From Laetmonice hystrix (lineage: Eukaryota), in contig OZ249436.1 of assembly GCA_965235115.1 (NCBI GenBank), positions 5,458,001 through 5,522,000 of the forward strand: DNA of 64,000 bases. The letters are read 5' to 3'. Position 1 is the stretch's first letter; each line of letters begins with the position of its first letter. A model generated the notes under the pieces. That model was not told the origin of the DNA and searched no databases. It saw nothing but the letters and a program-made list of their open reading frames with translations. The position numbers and the translations under genes were made by a program. Shown piece after piece: positions 1-17,200 of this stretch.

Positions 1-3000
1 TTTGCCCATCATTTTGTCCAAAATTAGAATGGAAACTTATCATTTTTAAAGTTTATTTTCAACTCTATACCATGTTATACACACAAAATAGAATTTTGGT
101 ATTACTTTAATTTTTTTTTCGTCTATCACGCAAGTTTCACTTTAATGTTTAATGAGGGACTATTATAGCTTCGGGGTCACCGGTCTTTTCTGCAGCCAGC
201 AGGGAGCTAGCGGTAATGACGCGTGATCTACAGCGGAGACATAGTTTCCTTTTTTCTCTTCCGTTTTAAAAATCCTTTAGCCTAATTGAGTTTAGCTTAT
301 CGCTCGAACTTGAAATTTTAACATGGTATCACTGTGGTTCAAAGGTAAGTATTTGAGGATTTTTTGGTGCCACTTTAAGAACGTTAAACAGCCACCCTCT
401 AGTTTGACGATGATAGGGGTGAAAAATAAGGGGGGGGGGGACAGACTCCGAATTTGATTAGTCTGACTACCCAGAGCCAGCGTGTACCCCTGATACGGCT
501 GGGCCTGGGGGAATTACCCCCCCCCCCCACCCCCACCCCCACCCCCTCCCGGTGCTACTGAGGACAAAATAATTTGCTTGACACAAACGTTGTTTATTCA
601 GGTTTTTGGCGGCAGTCGGACTCTAGAACCAGCAGAAGTACCTACCAAATATCCTTCCCAGCATCTTTCTCATGTGAAATTGGCACACCAAGGACAGCAG
701 GCGCACCAGCCTTGGCATTCACACTACAAGAATATCTACTTTAATAAACCGACTGACACAGTAGGTTCTTGTTTGCAATAGCCACAGAGGTCATAGTAGT
801 AATTTGTGCTATTCAGCAGTTTTTTTTGGTTACATTCCTGGCCTTTACTTTATTTTCTTAGATAATCCTCACAATTATCAATTTTAATATATAAGCCTGA
901 TAGTTTGTTCTGTTTGATCATTTAAAATATTTTCATAATGTTAGGCAGTATCCTGTTGCCTGTTGGCCTATAAGGCCCTATCTTAAGTCAATCGCTTGCG
1001 TACCATGAAAGTTATTTATAGCTTGATTCTTATCTCGATTTGTGTTTTTTTATACCGCGTAATAATGAGAAGTGCCGTTTTATTTTCTCTATCAGCCCAG
1101 CAGACTACACTTCCCGACATTTGAGAACAAAATGAACAACACCGAAGGAAGCGATATCAAATCAGTGCTCAAGGTGTCCGATGGCAGTGGCGCTTACGTC
1201 ACGCAGTACGCGAGAGTTCACGAGAAGCTGGGCGTTCTGCTCGGGCCGGGTGTGGGGCGCGACCTGGCGGTCAGGAAGGAGTACAATCTACTGACAGGTG
1301 TGTACTGTTACAGGTGGTAAGGGAAACGTCCCCGTATGTGGGAGCACAGCTGGTGTCGGCAGGTCATGGCGGCCATGATTCCAGCTCCGACTGGATGCTG
1401 CAGCCATCAGCAATTTTATGTGACGGCCTGGGTTGATGGATCGGTAGGGTCGCCTCGTGTCCCTCGACACCGTGCATAGAGAATGACAACATAAAAACTT
1501 CTCCTCAAGCTTTCAACAGTCCCATCTGTCCAAGTATAAATGTATTCAAGGGGAAAAGTAAAATGGAAACCAAAACTAAAAGCTCTGTAGTGCGCGGGCA
1601 TGGAGATCGAAAACACTTTTCTTATTAGACATTTATTTATAGATCGAGTCCCATTCGATACAAGTGCACTGAAAAACACTTCTGATTGAGCTGTTGCTTG
1701 TTGTGGTCGTTCTTCTTCTTCTTCAAGTGCATAAATTAATCTCTTTGTCTGATCTTTCTCAGGGGAGCAGCTGGGTCCAGCTTGGAAGGCCGAAAACAAG
1801 AGGATATCAGGCAACAGGATACTGTATAACAACTACCGGAAGGACGCTAACCAACATTTTGTTCTTGGCTAGCTGAGCTGAACGTCAAAGACCATGCAAC
1901 CTATCCTTCCAGTTGCCACAAATAATTTGGTCATTGATGAACTTCGTCAAGCGACATTGTTCACCCGTTGTCATTTAGGCCAATGCATGCCCCTCGTTTT
2001 TATGCTACGTGAATTGTTGAGGCACAATGTAACACTGGTGTTTAACTCACCTAACGCCCCCTCCCCTTTTCCCAACAGAATGTAATCGTTTGAAACGGCA
2101 TTTATGAATAATTACCTACGATAATGAATTTATGTATTCTTTTACCGAATGTGAGCACTTTGTCTTTGAGCCTCGTGCCCCTGACCCTGTATTTAAGGTT
2201 TTTATACCCAACCCCCTCCCCTATTCCGTTACACTCTAAAGACGTGTTATATACATTGAAAGAGGTGTAACGTCCCCGTGGCTGTCTGGGGCATGTTTTA
2301 CAGATACCAAACACATTTTTTGTTTTCCAGCACTGTGAATATCACCTTGTAACATCATATATGGCTGACGTAGTTTTTAACCAATCACAGCTTGGCTTCT
2401 TGGCCAATCACGGGTTTCCGTAGAAGCCAGATTTGTACGATTTGCCGAGGACGTATTATGTGACTGCCTAACGCAGCTGATCGAGTATTGTGGTCGGTGT
2501 ATGAACGCATGCAAGGTGCCCGTGAATTATTACTATTGGATCGGCCAGTATGCATAGAGATGCTCAGATCTGAATTGACAGGGAAAAGAATCTCATTGTT
2601 GAAATTTCTTTCAAAAAACAAGCCCAGTAGAGTATTAGATCGAGTTCAACGTTAGTTCAGATTAAGTAATCGAAGAAGGTCTTAGGAAATTAAGTTGTTT
2701 TAGTTGACCATGTAGAAAAAATGCGTATTTTTTGCCAATATCATGTGGAAAACAACCGATTTTTGTTGTTAACTATTACATAATTGTTTATCACTGTTAA
2801 TCCTGGTCGGTATGGTTGGTTTTTTTTTTGGGGGGGGGGGGGTATTTGTTTTGCACTGATATGCCACAGTGAAATGCACACGTGAAAAGGTACTCTTTAA
2901 ACTGTAATACACAGGGATGGGTTTTATCGTGGAATCTTACATTTGTAATGGATTGTGGCGAGAAGGAGTCTATTAATGCAAGCAATGCATATCAAGCATA

Positions 3001-3484
3001 TACACTGTATATCTGTGATATTTCATGATTACTGTATCTGAGATAAATAAGGCGCCAACAATAATCAGTGTTATTGTACTGATTTCTCTCTACCATTTTG
3101 TAAAGCCATATTCATAAGGAGCGCATTTTAACATTGCCTATGGAAGATAATCATGACTTTGTACGCAAATGCATAAATTAAAGGTAAATGTGTGTGAGAT
3201 TATGTACATCTCCAGTGTGATTTCTGTCATTTTAATAAAAAGCCATAAAACATCCCTAGACGACTCGCTCTATATCATAGATCTGCTTGTCTTCCTCCCT
3301 GCTTTTTGGCTTCACTGTCATGTAGGGGACTACCGTTATTGGATTGGTGGCTTTGTAATGTCATAACATGACAGACGTCTTAGGCGGTCGCGATGTTCCA
3401 TAATTCTGTAAGCCATTGAGATAATTTGATCTAACGTCCTTTCGAAATCTCCGACCAATATGGTCATATGCTGATTTTTTCTAC

Positions 3485-3800
3485 CGTTCCACCAATAATG
3501 TAACGTCATATCCTGACTTTTTCAACCGTTCCACCAATGTAACGTCATATTCCACCAATGTAACGTCATATTCCACCAATGTAACATCATATTCCACCAA
3601 TATAACGTCATATTCCACCAATGTAACGTCATATCTCGACTTTTTCAACCGTTCCACCAATGTAACGTCATATTCCACCAATGTAACGTCATATTCCACC
3701 AATGTAACGTCATATTCCACCAATGTAACGTCATATTCCACCAATGTAACGTCAAATGCTGACTTATTCAACCGTTCTGGACACCAATAATGTAACGTCT
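3485..3800. repeat. 21-bp minisatellite (TTCCACCAATGTAACGTCATA)
   Basis: About 13 tandem copies with occasional longer variants; explains the repetitive ORF 3481..3771. Confidence 0.95.
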
Positions 3801-4262
3801 GTCATAATTAGGCGTTACTGTCGGACGAACATGATTAGCTTTTGCTCCTTTCGGTCGTGTAGAAATATCGAGCCATGTCGCTCATAACATCCACTAGGGA
3901 GAAAATGAGACATGCACATATGTTAGAAGACGACGGAACACGCCAGAACAAACGGAGACGAGAAGGAATTTTGGCAATTGTTCCACTCGCACATTTATTG
4001 ATTTGGGCCCGGTCTCATTGGTGAAAGTGCAAGCCCCTTACGGCGCCAGTGGCGGTCATGGTGCTCGACGAAACCACCCGTAATGGGACGGAATCCTGGT
4101 TTGTGTTTGGTTTGTAAAATTATCGTTCAGTAGCAGCCGTCACTTGTTTTAGCCGCAAGTCCTGTCGTGGTGGCTATGGCAAGCGGAATGGGTAAGTTTC
4201 GAAAAACAGTATCAATCAGAAAATGCCTGCCAAATGTTACAAAGCTCAATCATACCCTGGCA

Positions 4263-8773: not shown

Positions 8774-9125
8774 ATGAGAACTGCCTACATCCCGCTCACT
8801 ATACTGTGTGGATTCGCAGTGTTCATGATTGTAATTCGGTTTCCCCCACTGTATCTGGTTGGGTCATACTATGAAAGAGCCTTTCGTTTCCTTCGGAAGG
8901 ATCAACCTGGCGACGATGACCGTTCAACATTTAGTCAAGCCGAGATTCATCAGTTACAACAGGGCTTTGACCGACCTGACAACGGACGGTTTGTAACTTA
9001 TATTAGGAACTATTGGATCAGCCATCCATCACCGCTAACCAAACATGTGTTGGCTAGTCCAACGTGGGATACGTCTCAACATGGTCAATCAGCATTTATT
9101 GACAAAGAGCTGTCAAAACGAACAG
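8774..9125 (+). CDS. FkbM-family (Star-like) methyltransferase, coding exon 1 with N-terminal membrane anchor
   Basis: ATG, hydrophobic segment, then SQHGQSAFIDKEL motif; donor CAG|GTAACC at 9126 (phase 1) joins in frame to GGFFVECGA. Confidence 0.9.
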
Positions 9126-9324
9126 GTAACCCATATGACAATGACAATGACAGACCTAAATACTATGACAATAATAGTGACAACGACAATGATAAAATGG
9201 TTTATTTGTCTAGCATTTACAATGTACATTTACAATGTATGTGTTTGTCGGCAGGTGTAGCAGGATCGCCACAACCCTAACTTTTTACTGAGTGATATCG
9301 GACCAGAACACTATAGATTGCTCT

Positions 9325-10607
9325 AGTCCTCGGTTCGGATCACTCTAGAGGGATTTTGTCCTAGGTTCAGAGCACTCTGGAGTGATTTTGTCCTATAGGT
9401 TCAGAAAACTCTAGAGCGATTTTCTCCTAGATTTAGAAAACTCTAGAGTGATTTTGTCCTAGGTTCAGAAAACTCTAGAGTGATTTTGTCCTAGGTTCAG
9501 AAAACTCTAGAGTGATTTTGTCCTATAGGTTCAGAAAACTCTAGAGCGATTTTCTCCTAGATTTAGAAAACTCTAGAGTGATTTTGTCCTAGGTTCAGAA
9601 AACTCTAGAGTGATTTTGTCCTAGGTTCAGAAAACTCTAGAGTGATTTTGTCCTAGGTTCAGAAAACTCTAGAGTGATTTTGTCCTAGGTTCAGAAAACT
9701 CTAGAGTGATTTTGTCCTAGGTTCAGAAAACTCTAGAGTGATTTTGTCCTATAGGTTCAGAAAACTCTAGAGCGATTTTCTCCTAGATTTAGAAAACTCT
9801 AGTGATTTTGTCCTAGGTTCAGAAAACTCTAGAGTGATTTTGTCCTAGGTTCAGAAAACTCTAGAGTGATTTTGTCCTAGGTTCAGAAAACTCTAGAGTG
9901 ATTTTGTCCTAGGTTCAGAAAACTCTAGAGTGATTTTGTCCTAGGTTCAGAAAACTCTAGAGTGATTTTGTCCTAGGTTCAGAAAACTCTAGAGTGATTT
10001 TGTCCTATAGGTTCAGAAAACTCTAGAGCGATTTTCTCCTAGATTTAGAAAACTCTAGAGTGATTTTGTCCTAGGTTCAGAAAACTCTAGTGATTTTGTC
10101 CTAGGTTCAGAAAACTCTAGAGTGATTTTGTCCTAGGTTCAGAAAATTCTAGAGTGATTTTGTCCTAGGTTCAGAAAACTCTAGAGTGATTTTGTCCTAG
10201 GTTCAGAAAACTCTAGAGTGATTTTGTCCTAGGTTCAGAACGCTCTGTGATTTTGTCCTAGGTTCAAAGCACTCTAGAGTGATTTTGTCCTATACATTCA
10301 AAGCACTCTAGAGTGATTTTGCCCTAGGTTCAGAGCACTCTAGAGTGATTTTGCCCTAGGTTCAGAGCACTCTAGAGTGATTTTGCCCGAGGTTCAGAGC
10401 ACTCTAGAGTGATTTTGCCCTAGGTTCAGAGCACTCTAGAGTGATTTTGCCCTAGGTTCAGAGCACTCTAGAGTGATTTTGTCCTTGGTTCAGAAAACTT
10501 TAGAATGATTTTGTCATAGGTTCAGAACGCTCTGTGATTTTGTCCTAGGTTCAGAACACTCTAGAGTGATTTTGTCTTAGGCTCAGAGCACTCTGGAGTG
10601 ATTTTGT
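9325..10607. repeat. 32-bp intronic minisatellite (GAGTGATTTTGTCCTAGGTTCAGAAAACTCTA)
   Basis: About 40 tandem copies filling most of intron 1 of the methyltransferase gene. Confidence 0.97.
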
Positions 10608-10657
10608 ATAGGCAGTATTACCGGTTAGGTAACTTAGATATTCTTACTCTTCGACAG

Positions 10658-10886
10658 GTGGTTTTTTCGTCGAATGCGGGGCTCACAACGGAAAATATCT
10701 CTCCAACACTCTTTTCTTGGAGCGGGAACGAGGCTGGACGGGCCTGTTGATTGAACCAGAACCGTCCTCGTACAAGTCCCTTCAGGCCATGCAACGGAAC
10801 ACGTTTTCTGCTAATGTATGCCTTAGCTCAGCCAACCAGACAATGCGCGTCAAGTTTATGCCCATGGGAACGCATGGAAGACTGCT
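10658..10886 (+). CDS. FkbM/Star-like methyltransferase, exon 2, 5' part (interrupted by transposon)
   Basis: Acceptor CTCTTCGACAG|G; encodes GFFVECGAHNGKYLSNTLFLERERGWTGLLIEP, the family's SAM-binding signature. Confidence 0.92.
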
Positions 10887-12277
10887 GGTCACAATTCATG
10901 AACTGGGGTATCAAAAATGGGGGATTGTAACACATCTGACAAAGTTGTCCCATTCAAATCGAACTTTTACTCAGAAGAATAGGGCTACAACAACAAACTA
11001 GGTATATTCTGAAAGCTTATCATGTCACCTTTCTACTGATGTCACATTTATCACAGTTTGATTCAATGCAACCAAGTTCTTGTGTTGTGAATGAAATGAG
11101 TACCTGGGGGATCGGAGGAGGCGGTCGGAGGAGGCGGTGCATTTTCAATACAGACTTCAATGTGTGGTTCTGTTATTAGTCTCTAGGTTTCCAAGAGGGT
11201 CAAAGAGAGGCCAGTAGAAGGAAGCTATTTTAGTAGTGGACAGATCTTACAAATTGGCCTTCCAGTTCTACAATCTTGTCAACTAGTGATCGTGAGATTT
11301 TTAATCCCCTTGTAATTGTTGGTGTACATGGGAATGAGAAAATTGGAACAGGCACGTGGGTGTTTAGTTTGCATTTTGATCCCTATATATGAGGATTTTA
11401 TGCATAAATAGTCATGAAGGGTATACAGCTGGGACTGCCAATAGATCCCAGGATCCATTTTAGGTGACTGTGGTGCCGTAGGACACCAGGGCCCATGCAT
11501 AAAACTACTTAAGTCTAAGTAATACACCTATGTATTGTACTCGAACATGCCAAACAAAAGATAAGGGTTATACTTTGACTTAAGTAGTTTTATACATATG
11601 GGCCCAGAATCGCCCGCTTCACCCCTTAGCACAACCCTTGGTAGTTGCCAGTATTATTAGGTTATTATTTCACTGTATTTGTACTAAGTCAGTACACTTT
11701 GTTGCGAGGTCAGAGGTGCAAGATGGTGCTAATTACAATTATTTAATAATTATTTATTATCTTAAGAGATTTATTTTCTCATTGTTGGCTTTTATTCAAC
11801 TTTACACAGTCACGGATTGCCCGAGGGCTCTAAATATAAAAGCTGATCATTTCCATTGCATTTTTCATGATTTTCACGCATTTTTCATGATTTTCACCCA
11901 CCTGATTTTCAAAGTTCTTTTTTGTAGTCATTTTGGTGTGGGACATCACAACATTAGGTCTCACTTGAAAGAACATTTTCTTGTCTGCATTTTGCCACCA
12001 GTTTGGTGAAATTCGGTTGAAATAAAGGGAAGTTAGGCTTATTTTTGTCAAACCATGTCCGTTTTGAGAAAATCAATAAAAAAGGTTGGAGTCCCAATGC
12101 ATTATCCTATTGATTACGGTAATTCAATTGTACATTATTCATTAACGGATGGGAATAATAGAGTCAGTCTATGTGCAATTAAGAGACCTTCATTTGTTTA
12201 TTTCACAGGATGAATATTGAAAAATTGACCATTTTGACCCTGTTACACTTTTTGCCCCCAGTTCATGAATCACGACC
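10887..12277. mobile_element. 1391-bp non-autonomous TIR transposon, copy A (inside exon 2)
   Basis: ~22-bp imperfect TIR GGTC(ACA/GTG)ATTCATGAACTGGGG; 4-bp TSD TGCT (10883-10886, 12278-12281); removal restores the frame ...GRLLQKMRG... Confidence 0.95.
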
Positions 12278-12281
12278 TGCT

Positions 12282-12639
12282 ACAGAAAATGCGAGGAGAC
12301 CTCCAGTCTAGAAACCATATTATCGTCCAGTGTTTCCCCCTCCTCTCCCTGATGCTAGCCCTGGGAAGGACACACATAGACTACTTTTCCCTTGATGTTG
12401 AAGGAGCTGAACTGGGGATCTTGAAGACCATTCCATTTAGAAAGATCACTATTGACATATTGACAGTCGAGTACCGCGACCTGTCAGGAAGAGTCGCACA
12501 GAGTATCAGTAAGTTGAACAAGTTGCGGCAGTTTTTTGAAAGCACCAAACTTTACAAAGAAATTGCAATAATCCCGTACCACCCAGATAACGCGAAACGC
12601 GAACAAAACGGTGTCGATGTGGTCTTTAAGCGCGTCTAG
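12282..12639 (+). CDS. FkbM/Star-like methyltransferase, exon 2, 3' part
   Basis: VQCFPLLSLMLALGRTHIDYFSLDVEGAELGILKTIPF..IDILTVE motif; TAG at 12637-12639. Reconstructed protein is 312 aa. Confidence 0.92.
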
Positions 12640-12896
12640 ACTGGTACGAACAAGCCGTGACAAAATATCTATATGAGAATTATGGATGCAGGGATATATA
12701 AGTAGGCTAATCCAGTCGTCTTGCTGCCTATAGGTCAGATCATTAGTAATTAGTCATCACTTTAATAACATGATAACAGTGCTCCTATCTCCTGTAGGCT
12801 AAATGTAGGTGGTGCCACCAACGAGATGCCGTTATAACAAGTAGGCCTAAATTAAAGATTTTAAATTATTACGTCATCAAACCCACCATGTCATAC

Positions 12897-14287
12897 GGTC
12901 GTGATTCATGAACTGGGGGCAAAAAGTGTAACAGGGTCAAAATGGTCAATTTTTCAATATTCATCCTGTGAAATAAACAAATGAAGGTCTCTTAATTGCA
13001 CATAGACTGACTCTATTATTCCCATCCGTTAATGAATAATGTACAATTGAATTACCGTAATCAATAGGATAATGCATTGGGACTCCAACCTTTTTTATTG
13101 ATTTTCTCAAAACGGACATGGTTTGACAAAAATAAGCCTAACTTCCCTTTATTTCAACCGAATTTCACCAAACTGGTGGCAAAATGCAGACAAGAAAATG
13201 TTCTTTCAAGTGAGACCTAATGTTGTGATGTCCCACACCAAAATGACTACAAAAAAGAACTTTGAAAATCAGGTGGGTGAAAATCATGAAAAATGCGTGA
13301 AAATCATGAAAAATGCAATGGAAATGATCAGCTTTTATATTTAGAGCCCTCGGGCAATCCGTGACTGTGTAAAGTTGAATAAAAGCCAACAATGAGAAAA
13401 TAAATCTCTTAAGATAATAAATAATTATTAAATAATTGTAATTAGCACCATCTTGCACCTCTGACCTCGCAACAAAGTGTACTGACTTAGTACAAATACA
13501 GTGAAATAATAACCTAATAATACTGGCAACTACCAAGGGTTGTGCTAAGGGGTGAAGCGGGCGATTCTGGGCCCATATGTATAAAACTACTTAAGTCAAA
13601 GTATAACCCTTATCTTTTGTTTGGCATGTTCGAGTACAATACATAGGTGTATTACTTAGACTTAAGTAGTTTTATGCATGGGCCCTGGTGTCCTACGGCA
13701 CCACAGTCACCTAAAATGGATCCTGGGATCTATTGGCAGTCCCAGCTGTATACCCTTCATGACTATTTATGCATAAAATCCTCATATATAGGGATCAAAA
13801 TGCAAACTAAACACCCACGTGCCTGTTCCAATTTTCTCATTCCCATGTACACCAACAATTACAAGGGGATTAAAAATCTCACGATCACTAGTTGACAAGA
13901 TTGTAGAACTGGAAGGCCAATTTGTAAGATCTGTCCACTACTAAAATAGCTTCCTTCTACTGGCCTCTCTTTGACCCTCTTGGAAACCTAGAGACTAATA
14001 ACAGAACCACACATTGAAGTCTGTATTGAAAATGCACCGCCTCCTCCGACCGCCTCCTCCGATCCCCCAGGTACTCATTTCATTCACAACACAAGAACTT
14101 GGTTGCATTGAATCAAACTGTGATAAATGTGACATCAGTAGAAAGGTGACATGATAAGCTTTCAGAATATACCTAGTTTGTTGTTGTAGCCCTATTCTTC
14201 TGAGTAAAAGTTCGATTTGAATGGGACAACTTTGTCAGATGTGTTACAATCCCCCATTTTTGATACCCCAGTTCATGAATTGTGACC
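12897..14287. mobile_element. 1391-bp TIR transposon, copy B, inverted relative to copy A
   Basis: Reverse complement of 10887-12277 (same length; identical 123/82/73-aa ORFs on opposite strands); its own TSD ATAC (12893-12896, 14288-14291). Confidence 0.95.
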
Positions 14288-17200
14288 ATACATGTCTATA
14301 TAAAATATAACCAACAGGCTTGCAGAAATTTTGTCTGTTATTTTTATTTCCATGACTTTGCACTTGGGGATCCAGGGGACTCAAATTTAGGCCCCCTCCT
14401 CCCTTATCAAATTCCTGGATCCCCGACTGCACATGTTTGTATCAGCCTACAGTGGACCAGTTCACTGCAGAGTGGGCCTAGGTTGCTCGGTAACAGTAAA
14501 TGTGTGTTTCTTTTCCATTTGTTCCTTTCGGATTTCCAAATGCATGCATACAATATCACAACCCCAAAAACGGACTATGTTGAAGAAATATCATGTCAGT
14601 GTGAAGAGCTGAAGTATGATTACCACGGTGATAATTTCACTGGACGCAGCAGCCCGTGGCTGGAAGCACCGTATGCGGGTAGGATCGAGTGGCTGGGGTC
14701 GGTACAGGGCGTTAGACCCCACTTTGGTATAGACACGCATTTTTGCGGAGCAAGTAAGAGTCAGTGTGTAATTAATCATGCCACTTCCCATTGAGCTTGG
14801 TATGGGATCACGGATAGGGCCACGGTGATGGCCTCTCCCTGCTCCAAGGCAACATGGACCCGGGCCGATAAGGGCAGGCCTGCCTAACGCCTTCCATCTC
14901 GTTAGCGTTGGCTGATGTGGGGAGGGATTCTGGCAGAACCTGCCTCTCCACGTAGGCCTACACGTACTGCAGACAGTCCAGATGTCTTCAAGTCATAGAA
15001 CCCATGGCATGACTGAGGACCTATAGAAGCAATGAATCGCAGTCGGCATTTTGTGCTGAAGATAACGGTTTCCCAGTTGTTCCCGTTCTGGCGAATCCAA
15101 AACAATGTGGGAAGAAACAATAGTCATAGATACTTAATAACTCTTTTATTAAACCCTTACCACAATTAGAGCGCATGGCCTATAAGGTGTGTTAGTAAAA
15201 TATTGAGAACCATTCCCATATAATATCCGTACATATAAGGCCTACCTGACGGCTAACATTGATAGGCACGTGCAATTGTGGTTTTCTAAAGCTTGCAAGA
15301 TCTCTGATCCCCATAGGTACCTATCAATCCGTAAATCGTCCATTCAATGCCAAAAGGGCGTCCGCCCGCCCCGCCAAACTGTCTACGTCATCACGTCGCC
15401 CCCCCCCCCCCCCCCACCCCCACGCAATACGAACGCCGACTCCGGACGCCCACGCACGCGGCAAATCCAATTTGAAGCTTGTGTCGTGTAATACGGAATG
15501 TGGGTCGAGCTCACACACCGTCACCATGCATGTTAGTGATATTTGGCATCCCGGCCATTCGGACTCATGATGCCTGCGCCAGTTTCTGGCCAGTCAGTCA
15601 AGGCCAATGTATAGGAATACGAATGGCTTGTTTCTGTCTGCACGACGGTCGGGTCGAATGCTCAGGGTTAGAACGTGTGTGGACAACATCATCAGCACGG
15701 TAGTGATACCGTCTGACATGCTCAGGCATCGGAATCAAGAGATAAGAGATACATTGGCGTATACTCTCGTTTATGTCTGGATCGCCAAGAAGTATACCTC
15801 CCATTTACGAACTATATATACTACCTCCGCTAATGGCGCATTCCAAACAGTTAGGTCGGCACCAGTCAGCCTGTGGCCGAATAGTCCGGGCGTAGGTAGG
15901 CCTATACTTCCCTTCCATAACGCCATGGATTGGACCTGATAACACCCAAGCGATATTTTTTCTCACATTCGCGCCCATTTGTTAAAGGAGAAGTCCAGTC
16001 ATAAATCACATTTGGACAGCTGCAAGGCCTCTGTACATACACTCACCTTTCAGAGTAGTGGTTGGAAATAAATGTCCCCCCATTCCAAGAAGTCATATGT
16101 TGAACATGACAACCGTGTCAAAATCACTGGCTTCAGCGGCGCAGCCATTTGGCCGGAAGTAAGTGACGTCCTTGTGCCCATCTATTGCATGCCGGGGCTA
16201 GGCTAGACTAGACTAAAGTAAAGGCAGCCGAGGCGGGTGGGCAAATCGACGGGGGTCAGTCCCACAGTCACAGGCACAGGCACAGTCACAACTAAGCGCA
16301 ACAGGTCTGTGCTGACCACAGGAGTCTGACACTGCCAGTGCCCGCGGGTGGAGTCAGAGTGGGGCCCGTCCCTGGGCCCAGTGGCCCTGGGCTCCGTCAA
16401 CATCACACCTCCGAGCGGGAATGCAGGCGGCCGAAACCCACGGCTGCCCAGATCCGTGTCCACCCTGATATATCCCCTGACATCGGTAGGCTTAATTCCT
16501 AGCCATTCCTCGTCACTATGATCGATGGTTTTCGTCTATGTTCTAACAAATTTTGCTTATATAAGCTGTCAACGTTCGCTACCTTTCGAATCGCTCAACG
16601 CAGTCAGGTGCGTCAGTATTTCGTTCCTTCCAAACTGGAGAGCAGTGGTCGAGCATGCGCAGTTTGAGATTAGCCCAAGGAGCAGACGCTATGGCGGCCA
16701 ACACCAGCGGAGCAGGCTCTAAGCAGGCTCCGGCACTAAAGTGCTTATATCTTAACTATTTGAGCACCAATTGTGTTCAAATCTTTTTTAAATTGCTTAA
16801 AGAATATCACGGCCTGTGTGCCTGGCCTGTACACACTTGCGGTGGACGTTTCTTTTAAATGAACGCTCACATATCCTGCACGGGACCCTGGGTAAGCCGC
16901 AGGGGACCAGGCTAACGAGGACACCGCTTGCCGAACTAGGCTTATTTCTTTTGGGAAGCTATATGGCGGATTTCTCCGTGATACCAGCCGAACCAGTGGG
17001 TAATCCAAAGACAAACACCCACCGTAAGTTTAATTAAAGAAATATCACTGCTTAATGCCCCTCTTCGATAGGCCTAGGCCTACTTTATGTCACTGGTGTA
17101 GTAAGCTAAGGTGAGTGAGGTGGCGCGCATGTTCCTATTTGGGCCGTGAGTAATATGTAATCTTTGAGAGTGCTTTCCCCGAAGATTGCCTATACTTCTA

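Follow-up and report, generated by a model that had tools for sequence, protein, structure and literature searches.

In a 64,000-nt stretch of the Laetmonice hystrix genome (contig OZ249436.1, positions 5,458,001 to 5,522,000; here termed the window, with positions counted from its first letter), the second exon of a methyltransferase gene is interrupted by a non-autonomous terminal inverted repeat (TIR) transposon. We consider it probable that this insertion is a recent allele, null or largely null, of a redundant gene. There is likewise good reason to think that the transposon entered a dispensable member of the FkbM-type methyltransferase family and additionally made a local hop, and that both insertions are still segregating. 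The likeliest reading is an ordinary case, in which an active non-autonomous DNA transposon disables a redundant gene and hops locally. From the assembly and from sequencing reads, we established the anatomy of the element, its family, its heterozygosity and the broken state of the transposon-free haplotype.

In the gene model built from the sequence, exon 1 (8774 to 9125, forward strand) starts with ATG, encodes a hydrophobic N terminus and ends at the putative donor CAG|GTAACC; searched alone against Pfam, it gave no match. The native phase-1 intron (9126 to 10657, forward strand) consists largely of a 32-bp minisatellite (9304 to 10607, 40.8 copies) that stops ∼50 nt upstream of the exon 2 acceptor; such arrays are numerous in the window (72 rows in the repeat listing). 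The 5′ part of exon 2 (exon 2a, 10658 to 10886, forward strand) encodes the N-terminal half of an FkbM (Methyltransf_21) domain and matched the Pfam profile over the cut-off (E 1.8e-05, profile positions 1 to 51), as did the 3′ part (exon 2b, 12278 to 12639, forward strand; E 4.3e-08, profile positions 91 to 166), which ends with the stop codon TAG at 12637 to 12639. An open-frame check found both halves free of stops, and removal in silico of the element and one target site duplication (TSD) restored an open reading frame of 312 amino acids (aa). The sequence ATTAAA at 12851 to 12856 (forward strand) is a candidate poly(A) signal. With both halves matching PF05050 and a hydrophobic N terminus, the gene resembles FkbM-domain methyltransferases; we take it to be what is labelled "protein Star-like."

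The inserted element (copy 1, 10887 to 12277, forward strand, 1,391 bp) is flanked by the TSD TGCT, which forms the 3′ end of exon 2a (10883 to 10886) and is repeated at the start of exon 2b (12278 to 12281). Its termini, GGTCACAATTCATGAACTGGGG and GGTCGTGATTCATGAACTGGGG, match at 19/22 bases; the left TIR (10887 to 10908, forward strand) contains the candidate donor GT at 10888 and 10889 (CTG|GTCACA), and the right TIR (12256 to 12277, reverse strand) is predicted to pair with it at −35.9 kcal/mol. No transposase open reading frame is present in copy 1, the longest frame (141 aa) giving no Pfam match, and an Rfam search of 10600 to 14400 returned no match. Two AATAAA signals, recognized from sequence, lie on the forward strand at 12021 and 12075 (within 12021 to 12080), and an imperfect inverted repeat of ∼120 nt in the interior (11489 to 11605) is predicted to form a long hairpin. 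A first-pass annotation of this DNA had described a 1,391-bp TIR element with the TSD TGCT that splits the methyltransferase domain into two halves lacking stops and frameshifts, all of which held. Its coordinates were likewise correct, but it had missed an identical inverted copy (copy 2, 12897 to 14287, reverse strand) that begins 619 nt downstream of copy 1 and ∼40 nt beyond the candidate poly(A) signal. Copy 2 is 100% identical to copy 1 and has its own TSD, ATAC (12893 to 12896 and 14288 to 14291). Among the 30 best copies of the family, a 10-bp deletion is common to these two only, which points to a local hop.

Searching the 627-Mb assembly (35 contigs) for the termini recovered 60 left ends and 62 right ones, corresponding to ∼60 elements; the controls gave 0 hits. 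The 30 best copies differed from their own consensus by 0 to 12 substitutions and were mostly 1,401 bp long. Of the ∼60 elements, 38 loci were examined, which gave 32 independent sites once duplicated flanks had been merged. At 26 of these 32 sites the TSD was exactly 4 bp, and in none of the 26 was it 5 bp; its last base was T in 20/26 and its first base A or C. Over the 32 independent sites, the preference in the target flanks was palindromic (A/G, C before; G/A, T after), and the TSD itself was asymmetric. Given its TIRs, fixed 4-bp TSD, near-identical dispersed copies and empty sites, the family is a young non-autonomous TIR DNA transposon. No transposase frame was recognized in the element, in 12 longer or one-ended loci or in 2 loci with variant ends, which held nested inserts instead, and relaxed terminus patterns recovered known copies only among the matches listed. 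Four tandem units with 3.6-kb spacing (L008, L009, L010 and L014, G000:C4:23416587-23428801) each carry an element, and two distant copies (L003 and L016) have the same flanks; this set represents a single insertion in a GGCTCTT-type repeat that was then multiplied. Another copy lacks a matching TSD and sits beside an open reading frame with a NADAR domain and a LINE-type frame; another left end lies at a distance of 4.9 kb, and the whole resembles a rearrangement (L020/L049, G000:C4:22718225-22724526). An older copy, 90% identical and without its left 22 bp, is contained in an exact duplication with 26.6-kb spacing (L055 and L056, G000:C1:2492000-2528500).

The domain DUF7869, which we take to be tied to Sola transposases, had 27 matches in the genome, with none near the family termini among those listed. 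In the accessible part of PMC3845634, Sola1_NA resembles the present family in its GG...CC ends (GGAC in Sola1_NA, GGTC here) and in a 4-bp TSD mostly ending in T. The Sola1 target given there is the 4-bp AWWT/AWDT, in contrast to the present family, in which it was found in only 1/26 independent TSDs and for which no transposase-bearing relative was found; Sola1 was rejected as the superfamily because of this target mismatch. The portions available of PMC4455052 and PMC5199201 contained no table that fixes the superfamily of the element.

Three sequencing runs of one sample (X1, X2 and X3), DNA-like and possibly the source of the assembly itself, were mapped to 10610 to 12920, with thousands-fold depth over the element. 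A run search with 12278 to 12896 listed no RNA run, a result that we count neither for nor against expression, and in reads that behave as DNA the lack of the joins 10887>12262 and 10887>12286 is uninformative. A junction contig covering 10610 to 10914 showed no differences in 3/3 runs. An X2 contig joined 10876 directly to 12280 with the element absent, and in X1 and X2 loose ends behind 12896 ran into the flank beyond copy 2, which together indicate that both copies are heterozygous. Differences between the alleles stood at about half depth (28.4/71 in X1, 26/51.3 in X2 and 15.1/29.1 in X3). The reads also bear on whether the insertion pair might be an assembly artefact, be it a misplaced repeat or a false inverted duplication. 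Two 100% identical copies with 619 nt between them could arise in this way, the more so as the assembly may have been built from these very runs and the 12896/12897 junction of copy 2 was in no contig listed. However, the copies have different 4-bp TSDs, contigs from all three runs agree with the assembly across the left junction of copy 1, and each empty site shows a single target of TSD length; we give such an error almost no credence. Dividing the element depth (∼3,000 to 3,900) by the single-allele depth (∼35) in X1 suggests ∼90 to 110 copies, near twice the assembly count, albeit as a rough estimate, summed depth not being copy number. This estimate argues against a collapsed paralog as the origin of the second sequence, an option we rejected; moreover, the assembly contains the 619-nt stretch just once, and the best paralog is only 63% identical.

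The transposon-free haplotype was itself broken. A 2-bp insertion behind 12456, present at about half depth in 3/3 runs, leads to a stop at 12461, and a net 4-bp duplication at 10876, seen in one contig of X2 only, leads to a stop at 12309. The duplicated bases (10873 to 10876) lie ∼10 nt from the insertion site; as pure speculation, they might be the footprint of an earlier element with a 4-bp TSD that inserted and was then excised. In exon 2b, this haplotype carried 5 nonsynonymous and 2 synonymous changes, and SNPs at 12434 to 12666 tell the two alleles apart. Exon 2a was covered at single-allele depth in 3/3 runs (34.7 versus 75, 14.3 versus ∼51 and 12.9 versus 28.3) and is probably missing from the transposon-free haplotype, depth holes being suggestive rather than proof. 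A second allele in this condition indicates that the animal tolerates nulls of this paralog. Conversely, the inserted allele might have to be the functional copy, its counterpart being dead.

Nineteen further matches to the methyltransferase family were found in the genome, the best being 63% identical and several containing stops. Seven of 11 fetched paralogs were full length, and all 7 were continuous across the insertion site; since the empty allele is present in the same sample as well, any intron at this position would be a gain. Counted from one conserved anchor to the next, the segment around the site is 36 residues long in the empty allele and 44 to 49 in the paralogs, which makes it 8 to 13 residues shorter than in 7/7 paralogs; a form spliced to 12262 would have 43. 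A scar of 7 residues would therefore probably be tolerated. The short segment, apparently shared by both haplotypes, could also mean that both haplotypes already carried a silent gene or a decaying pseudogene when the element inserted, which would make the fate of its transcripts moot; the several lesions of the other allele and its 5:2 ratio of nonsynonymous to synonymous changes would fit such decay. In contrast, the 312-aa frame, the splice sites and the conserved motifs of the assembled allele are intact, and we hold prior decay on both haplotypes to be very unlikely.

As had been proposed at first pass, two acceptors could join in frame to the GT at 10888, which directly follows the codon CTG. 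The join 10887>12262 (AG at 12260 and 12261) would give 319 aa, with 7 residues added, and the join 10887>12286 (AG at 12284 and 12285) would give 311 aa, with only Gln lost. Retention of the element, as was also stated correctly, would bring in a premature TAG at 10999 to 11001 (forward strand), codon 232, after 231 aa, with a stronger donor (TAG|GTATAT, at 11002) right behind it. Donors were scored with a general frequency matrix that is not species specific; by this measure the donor CTG|GTCACA, already suspected of being weak, scored −2.8 compared to +3.5 for the native donor and ranked 31st of the 98 GTs in exon 2a and the element. The four best donors (11464, 12119, 11709 and 11002) all lie at or after the premature stop and were much stronger than GT 10888. 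The donor was weak at all 38 loci scored (best, −0.8), and the preferred last base of the TSD, T, places an unfavourable base at donor position −2. At the other end, the right terminus holds a pyrimidine-rich acceptor, ...TTTTTGCCCCCAG (12240 to 12261, forward strand), with 15/19 pyrimidines compared to 12/19 for the native acceptor; the second acceptor, CTACAG at 12285, has 10/19.

Splicing via 12261 would leave a scar of 1 + 16 + 4 = 21 nt at every site and in either orientation, stop-free in 2/3 phases. That the scar would stay in frame throughout the family is a genuine property of the element. Since its length is the same wherever the element inserts, the codon-boundary position of the GT is not special: the first-pass annotation had placed it correctly, but as an argument for splicing the position carries little weight. 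We also placed 3,000 random 1,391-bp fragments of the window at the focal site. In 41% of them, some GT and YAG close to the ends could be joined in frame with no stop; a donor at least as good as the real score together with an acceptor of at least 10/19 pyrimidines occurred in 10.7%, and such a donor with an acceptor of at least 15/19 pyrimidines, a threshold set post hoc, in 0.4%. An in-frame pair is thus common by chance, whereas the quality of the acceptor is not. CCCCAG is complementary to the TIR's CTGGGG box and is present at both ends; transposase binding could therefore explain the AG with its run of C. In the predicted fold, GT 10888 and AG 12261 are both paired inside the TIR stem (−35.9 kcal/mol), and, if copy 2 is transcribed, the pairing predicted between copies 1 and 2 is far stronger (−177.5 kcal/mol for 100 nt).

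One candidate reading is an incipient Introner-like intron, in which the spliceosome would use GT 10888 with AG 12261 (or 12285) and leave a 7-codon scar. According to the available sections of PMC9860276, Introners of Aureococcus bring both splice sites and add codons, with family median lengths of 30 to 654 nt; those of Aureococcus sp. resemble the present element in having GT and AG inside the termini and a scar that is a multiple of three, and the Symbiodinium TIR Introners in being non-autonomous TIR elements with a 4-bp TSD. As summarized in the parts seen of PMC12130899 and PMC11282704, Introners derive from many kinds of transposable elements and are recognized as families of spliced introns. 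Besides this precedent, the in-frame GT and AG, the strong acceptor at 12261, the site-independent 21-nt scar, the intronless paralogs and the spliced length of 43 residues, near the 44 to 49 of the paralogs, all speak for such an intron. Against it stand the uniformly weak donors and the burial of both splice sites in the predicted stem. With respect to the Introners of the same source, the present element also differs in its length (∼1.4 kb compared to medians of 30 to 654 nt), its heterozygous, unfixed state and its single exonic copy compared to at least 4 introns, with splicing at this locus being a prediction. We judge an Introner-like origin improbable.

The family as a whole was informative here. 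At the focal empty site, the stop-free frame extends 84 and 119 codons to either side. At 32 other loci (with 5 duplicates of one flank left out and a single duplicate pair retained), the shorter of the two stretches reached at least 50 codons in 2/32 in the sense and 0/32 in the antisense orientation, compared to 6% of random flank positions. Among 55 frames next to junctions, each 38 aa or longer and taken from 30 loci (8 of the 38, being window copies or duplicates, were skipped), two exceeded the Pfam cut-off: L020 matched NADAR and L028 matched RVT_2, in each case in a mobile-element-type frame antisense to the element; matches at L005 fell below the cut-off and were treated as noise. A host exon was clearly interrupted at 0 of the 30 other independent sites, within frames of at least ∼38 codons, leaving 1 exonic copy among the 32 independent sites examined (of ∼60 elements) and no second one to support an intron family. 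Among the sites examined, the expectation that copies would coincide with exons was accordingly not borne out; copies elsewhere sit in non-coding sequence or inside other mobile elements. If a few percent of the genome is coding, 1 in 32 is about what random insertion would yield. At L013 (G000:C8 near 9654400), an apparent acceptor lies 50 nt past a sense-oriented element and is followed by a CARD match below the cut-off, so that this copy appears to sit within an existing intron, which also speaks against intron birth by the family. At the apparent CARD-domain exon (L013:2951-3110), the acceptor of the element might be used in competition with the native acceptor. Under the working criterion available from PMC9860276, an Introner family comprises at least 4 similar introns in unrelated genes; the sites examined supplied one exonic copy. 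The initial view that splicing-out and a null allele were equally possible therefore stands on one side only: the null allele gained support from a heterozygous insertion opposite a broken haplotype, whereas an Introner went unsupported at the family level.

A different form of RNA-level removal is SOS-type rescue, in which the TIRs would pair in the mRNA and a system of AKAP17A, CAAP1 and RTCB would excise the element imprecisely, with some in-frame products working. In the sections available of PMC12779559, DNA transposons that lie in exons are cut out in C. elegans and in human cells when their TIRs pair, and the cuts seldom fall at GU-AG; this SOS splicing is imprecise and spliceosome independent, rescue needs an in-frame product and a tolerant, poorly conserved site, and SOS-spliced alleles appear to be purged with time. 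As described in that source for Tc1, Tc3 and Tc4 of C. elegans, the present case is a recent exonic TIR transposon with paired ends in an animal gene, at a site that tolerates length differences; homologues of AKAP17A and CAAP1 are indicated by genome matches over the cut-off to CAAP1 and RBD_AKAP-17A. Unlike those elements, ours is not Tc1/mariner (its 4-bp TSD is variable), its TIR is short and imperfect, and a second inverted copy lies nearby. Rescue of this kind is consistent with the precedent, the TIR pairing in the predicted fold and the varying length of the site among paralogs. However, the TIR duplex comprises just 15 continuous pairs plus flanks, the inverted repeat features required for SOS splicing being not yet determined according to the text seen of PMC12779559; copy 2 would be a far stronger partner for copy 1 (−177.5 versus −35.9 kcal/mol), and exon 2b could be removed too, if copy 2 is transcribed; and an internal AATAAA could end transcripts upstream of the right TIR. 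Such rescue is in our view doubtful. Should the element leave the RNA at all, however, we infer that it does so more probably by imprecise SOS-type excision, which fits paired ends and a weak donor better than Introner splicing does.

Taking both routes together, the ends might be splice-ready by design: in either orientation the element offers a GT at +2 and, 16 nt in from its other end, an AG behind a pyrimidine-rich tract. RNA-level removal, spliceosomal or SOS-type, would then add 7 residues and turn the inserted allele into the only working one, a heterozygous intron birth; we see only a slim chance of this. If true, it would be a rare catch of a polymorphic newborn intron in an animal, and the locus would allow spliceosomal excision to be tested against the SOS type in an organism beyond nematodes and human cells; its empty allele, known insertion site and second inverted copy would serve as built-in contrasts.

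In the preferred reading, that of a null or near-null allele, a young non-autonomous cut-and-paste DNA transposon would have entered exon 2, with the insertion still segregating, and a local hop would have left an identical inverted copy beyond the 3′ end of the gene; either copy may have been the first. Most transcripts would keep the 5′ part of the element and stop at 11001. Alternatively, they may use the stronger donors past the stop or end at the AATAAA signals of the element, or copies 1 and 2 may fold into a long duplex that hides the acceptor at 12261 and loops out exon 2b. Any of these outcomes would result in a null or near-null allele, whose persistence is presumably due to the redundancy of the gene rather than to splicing of the element. 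The resemblance of the ends to splice sites would be a by-product of the TIR sequence, namely, its GGT start and CCCCAG. Some points run contrary to this null reading: the transcript fate it assumes is deduced from signals among which the acceptor at 12261 beats the native one by pyrimidine count, the two reading frame halves of the inserted allele are intact, and the dead state of the other allele leaves this one as the sole allele able to work.

Copies 1 and 2 flank the 619-nt stretch with exon 2b such that their left ends face outward (10887 to 14287). A pair in this arrangement could give rise to composite movement or rearrangement, or to an RNA circle of exon 2b.
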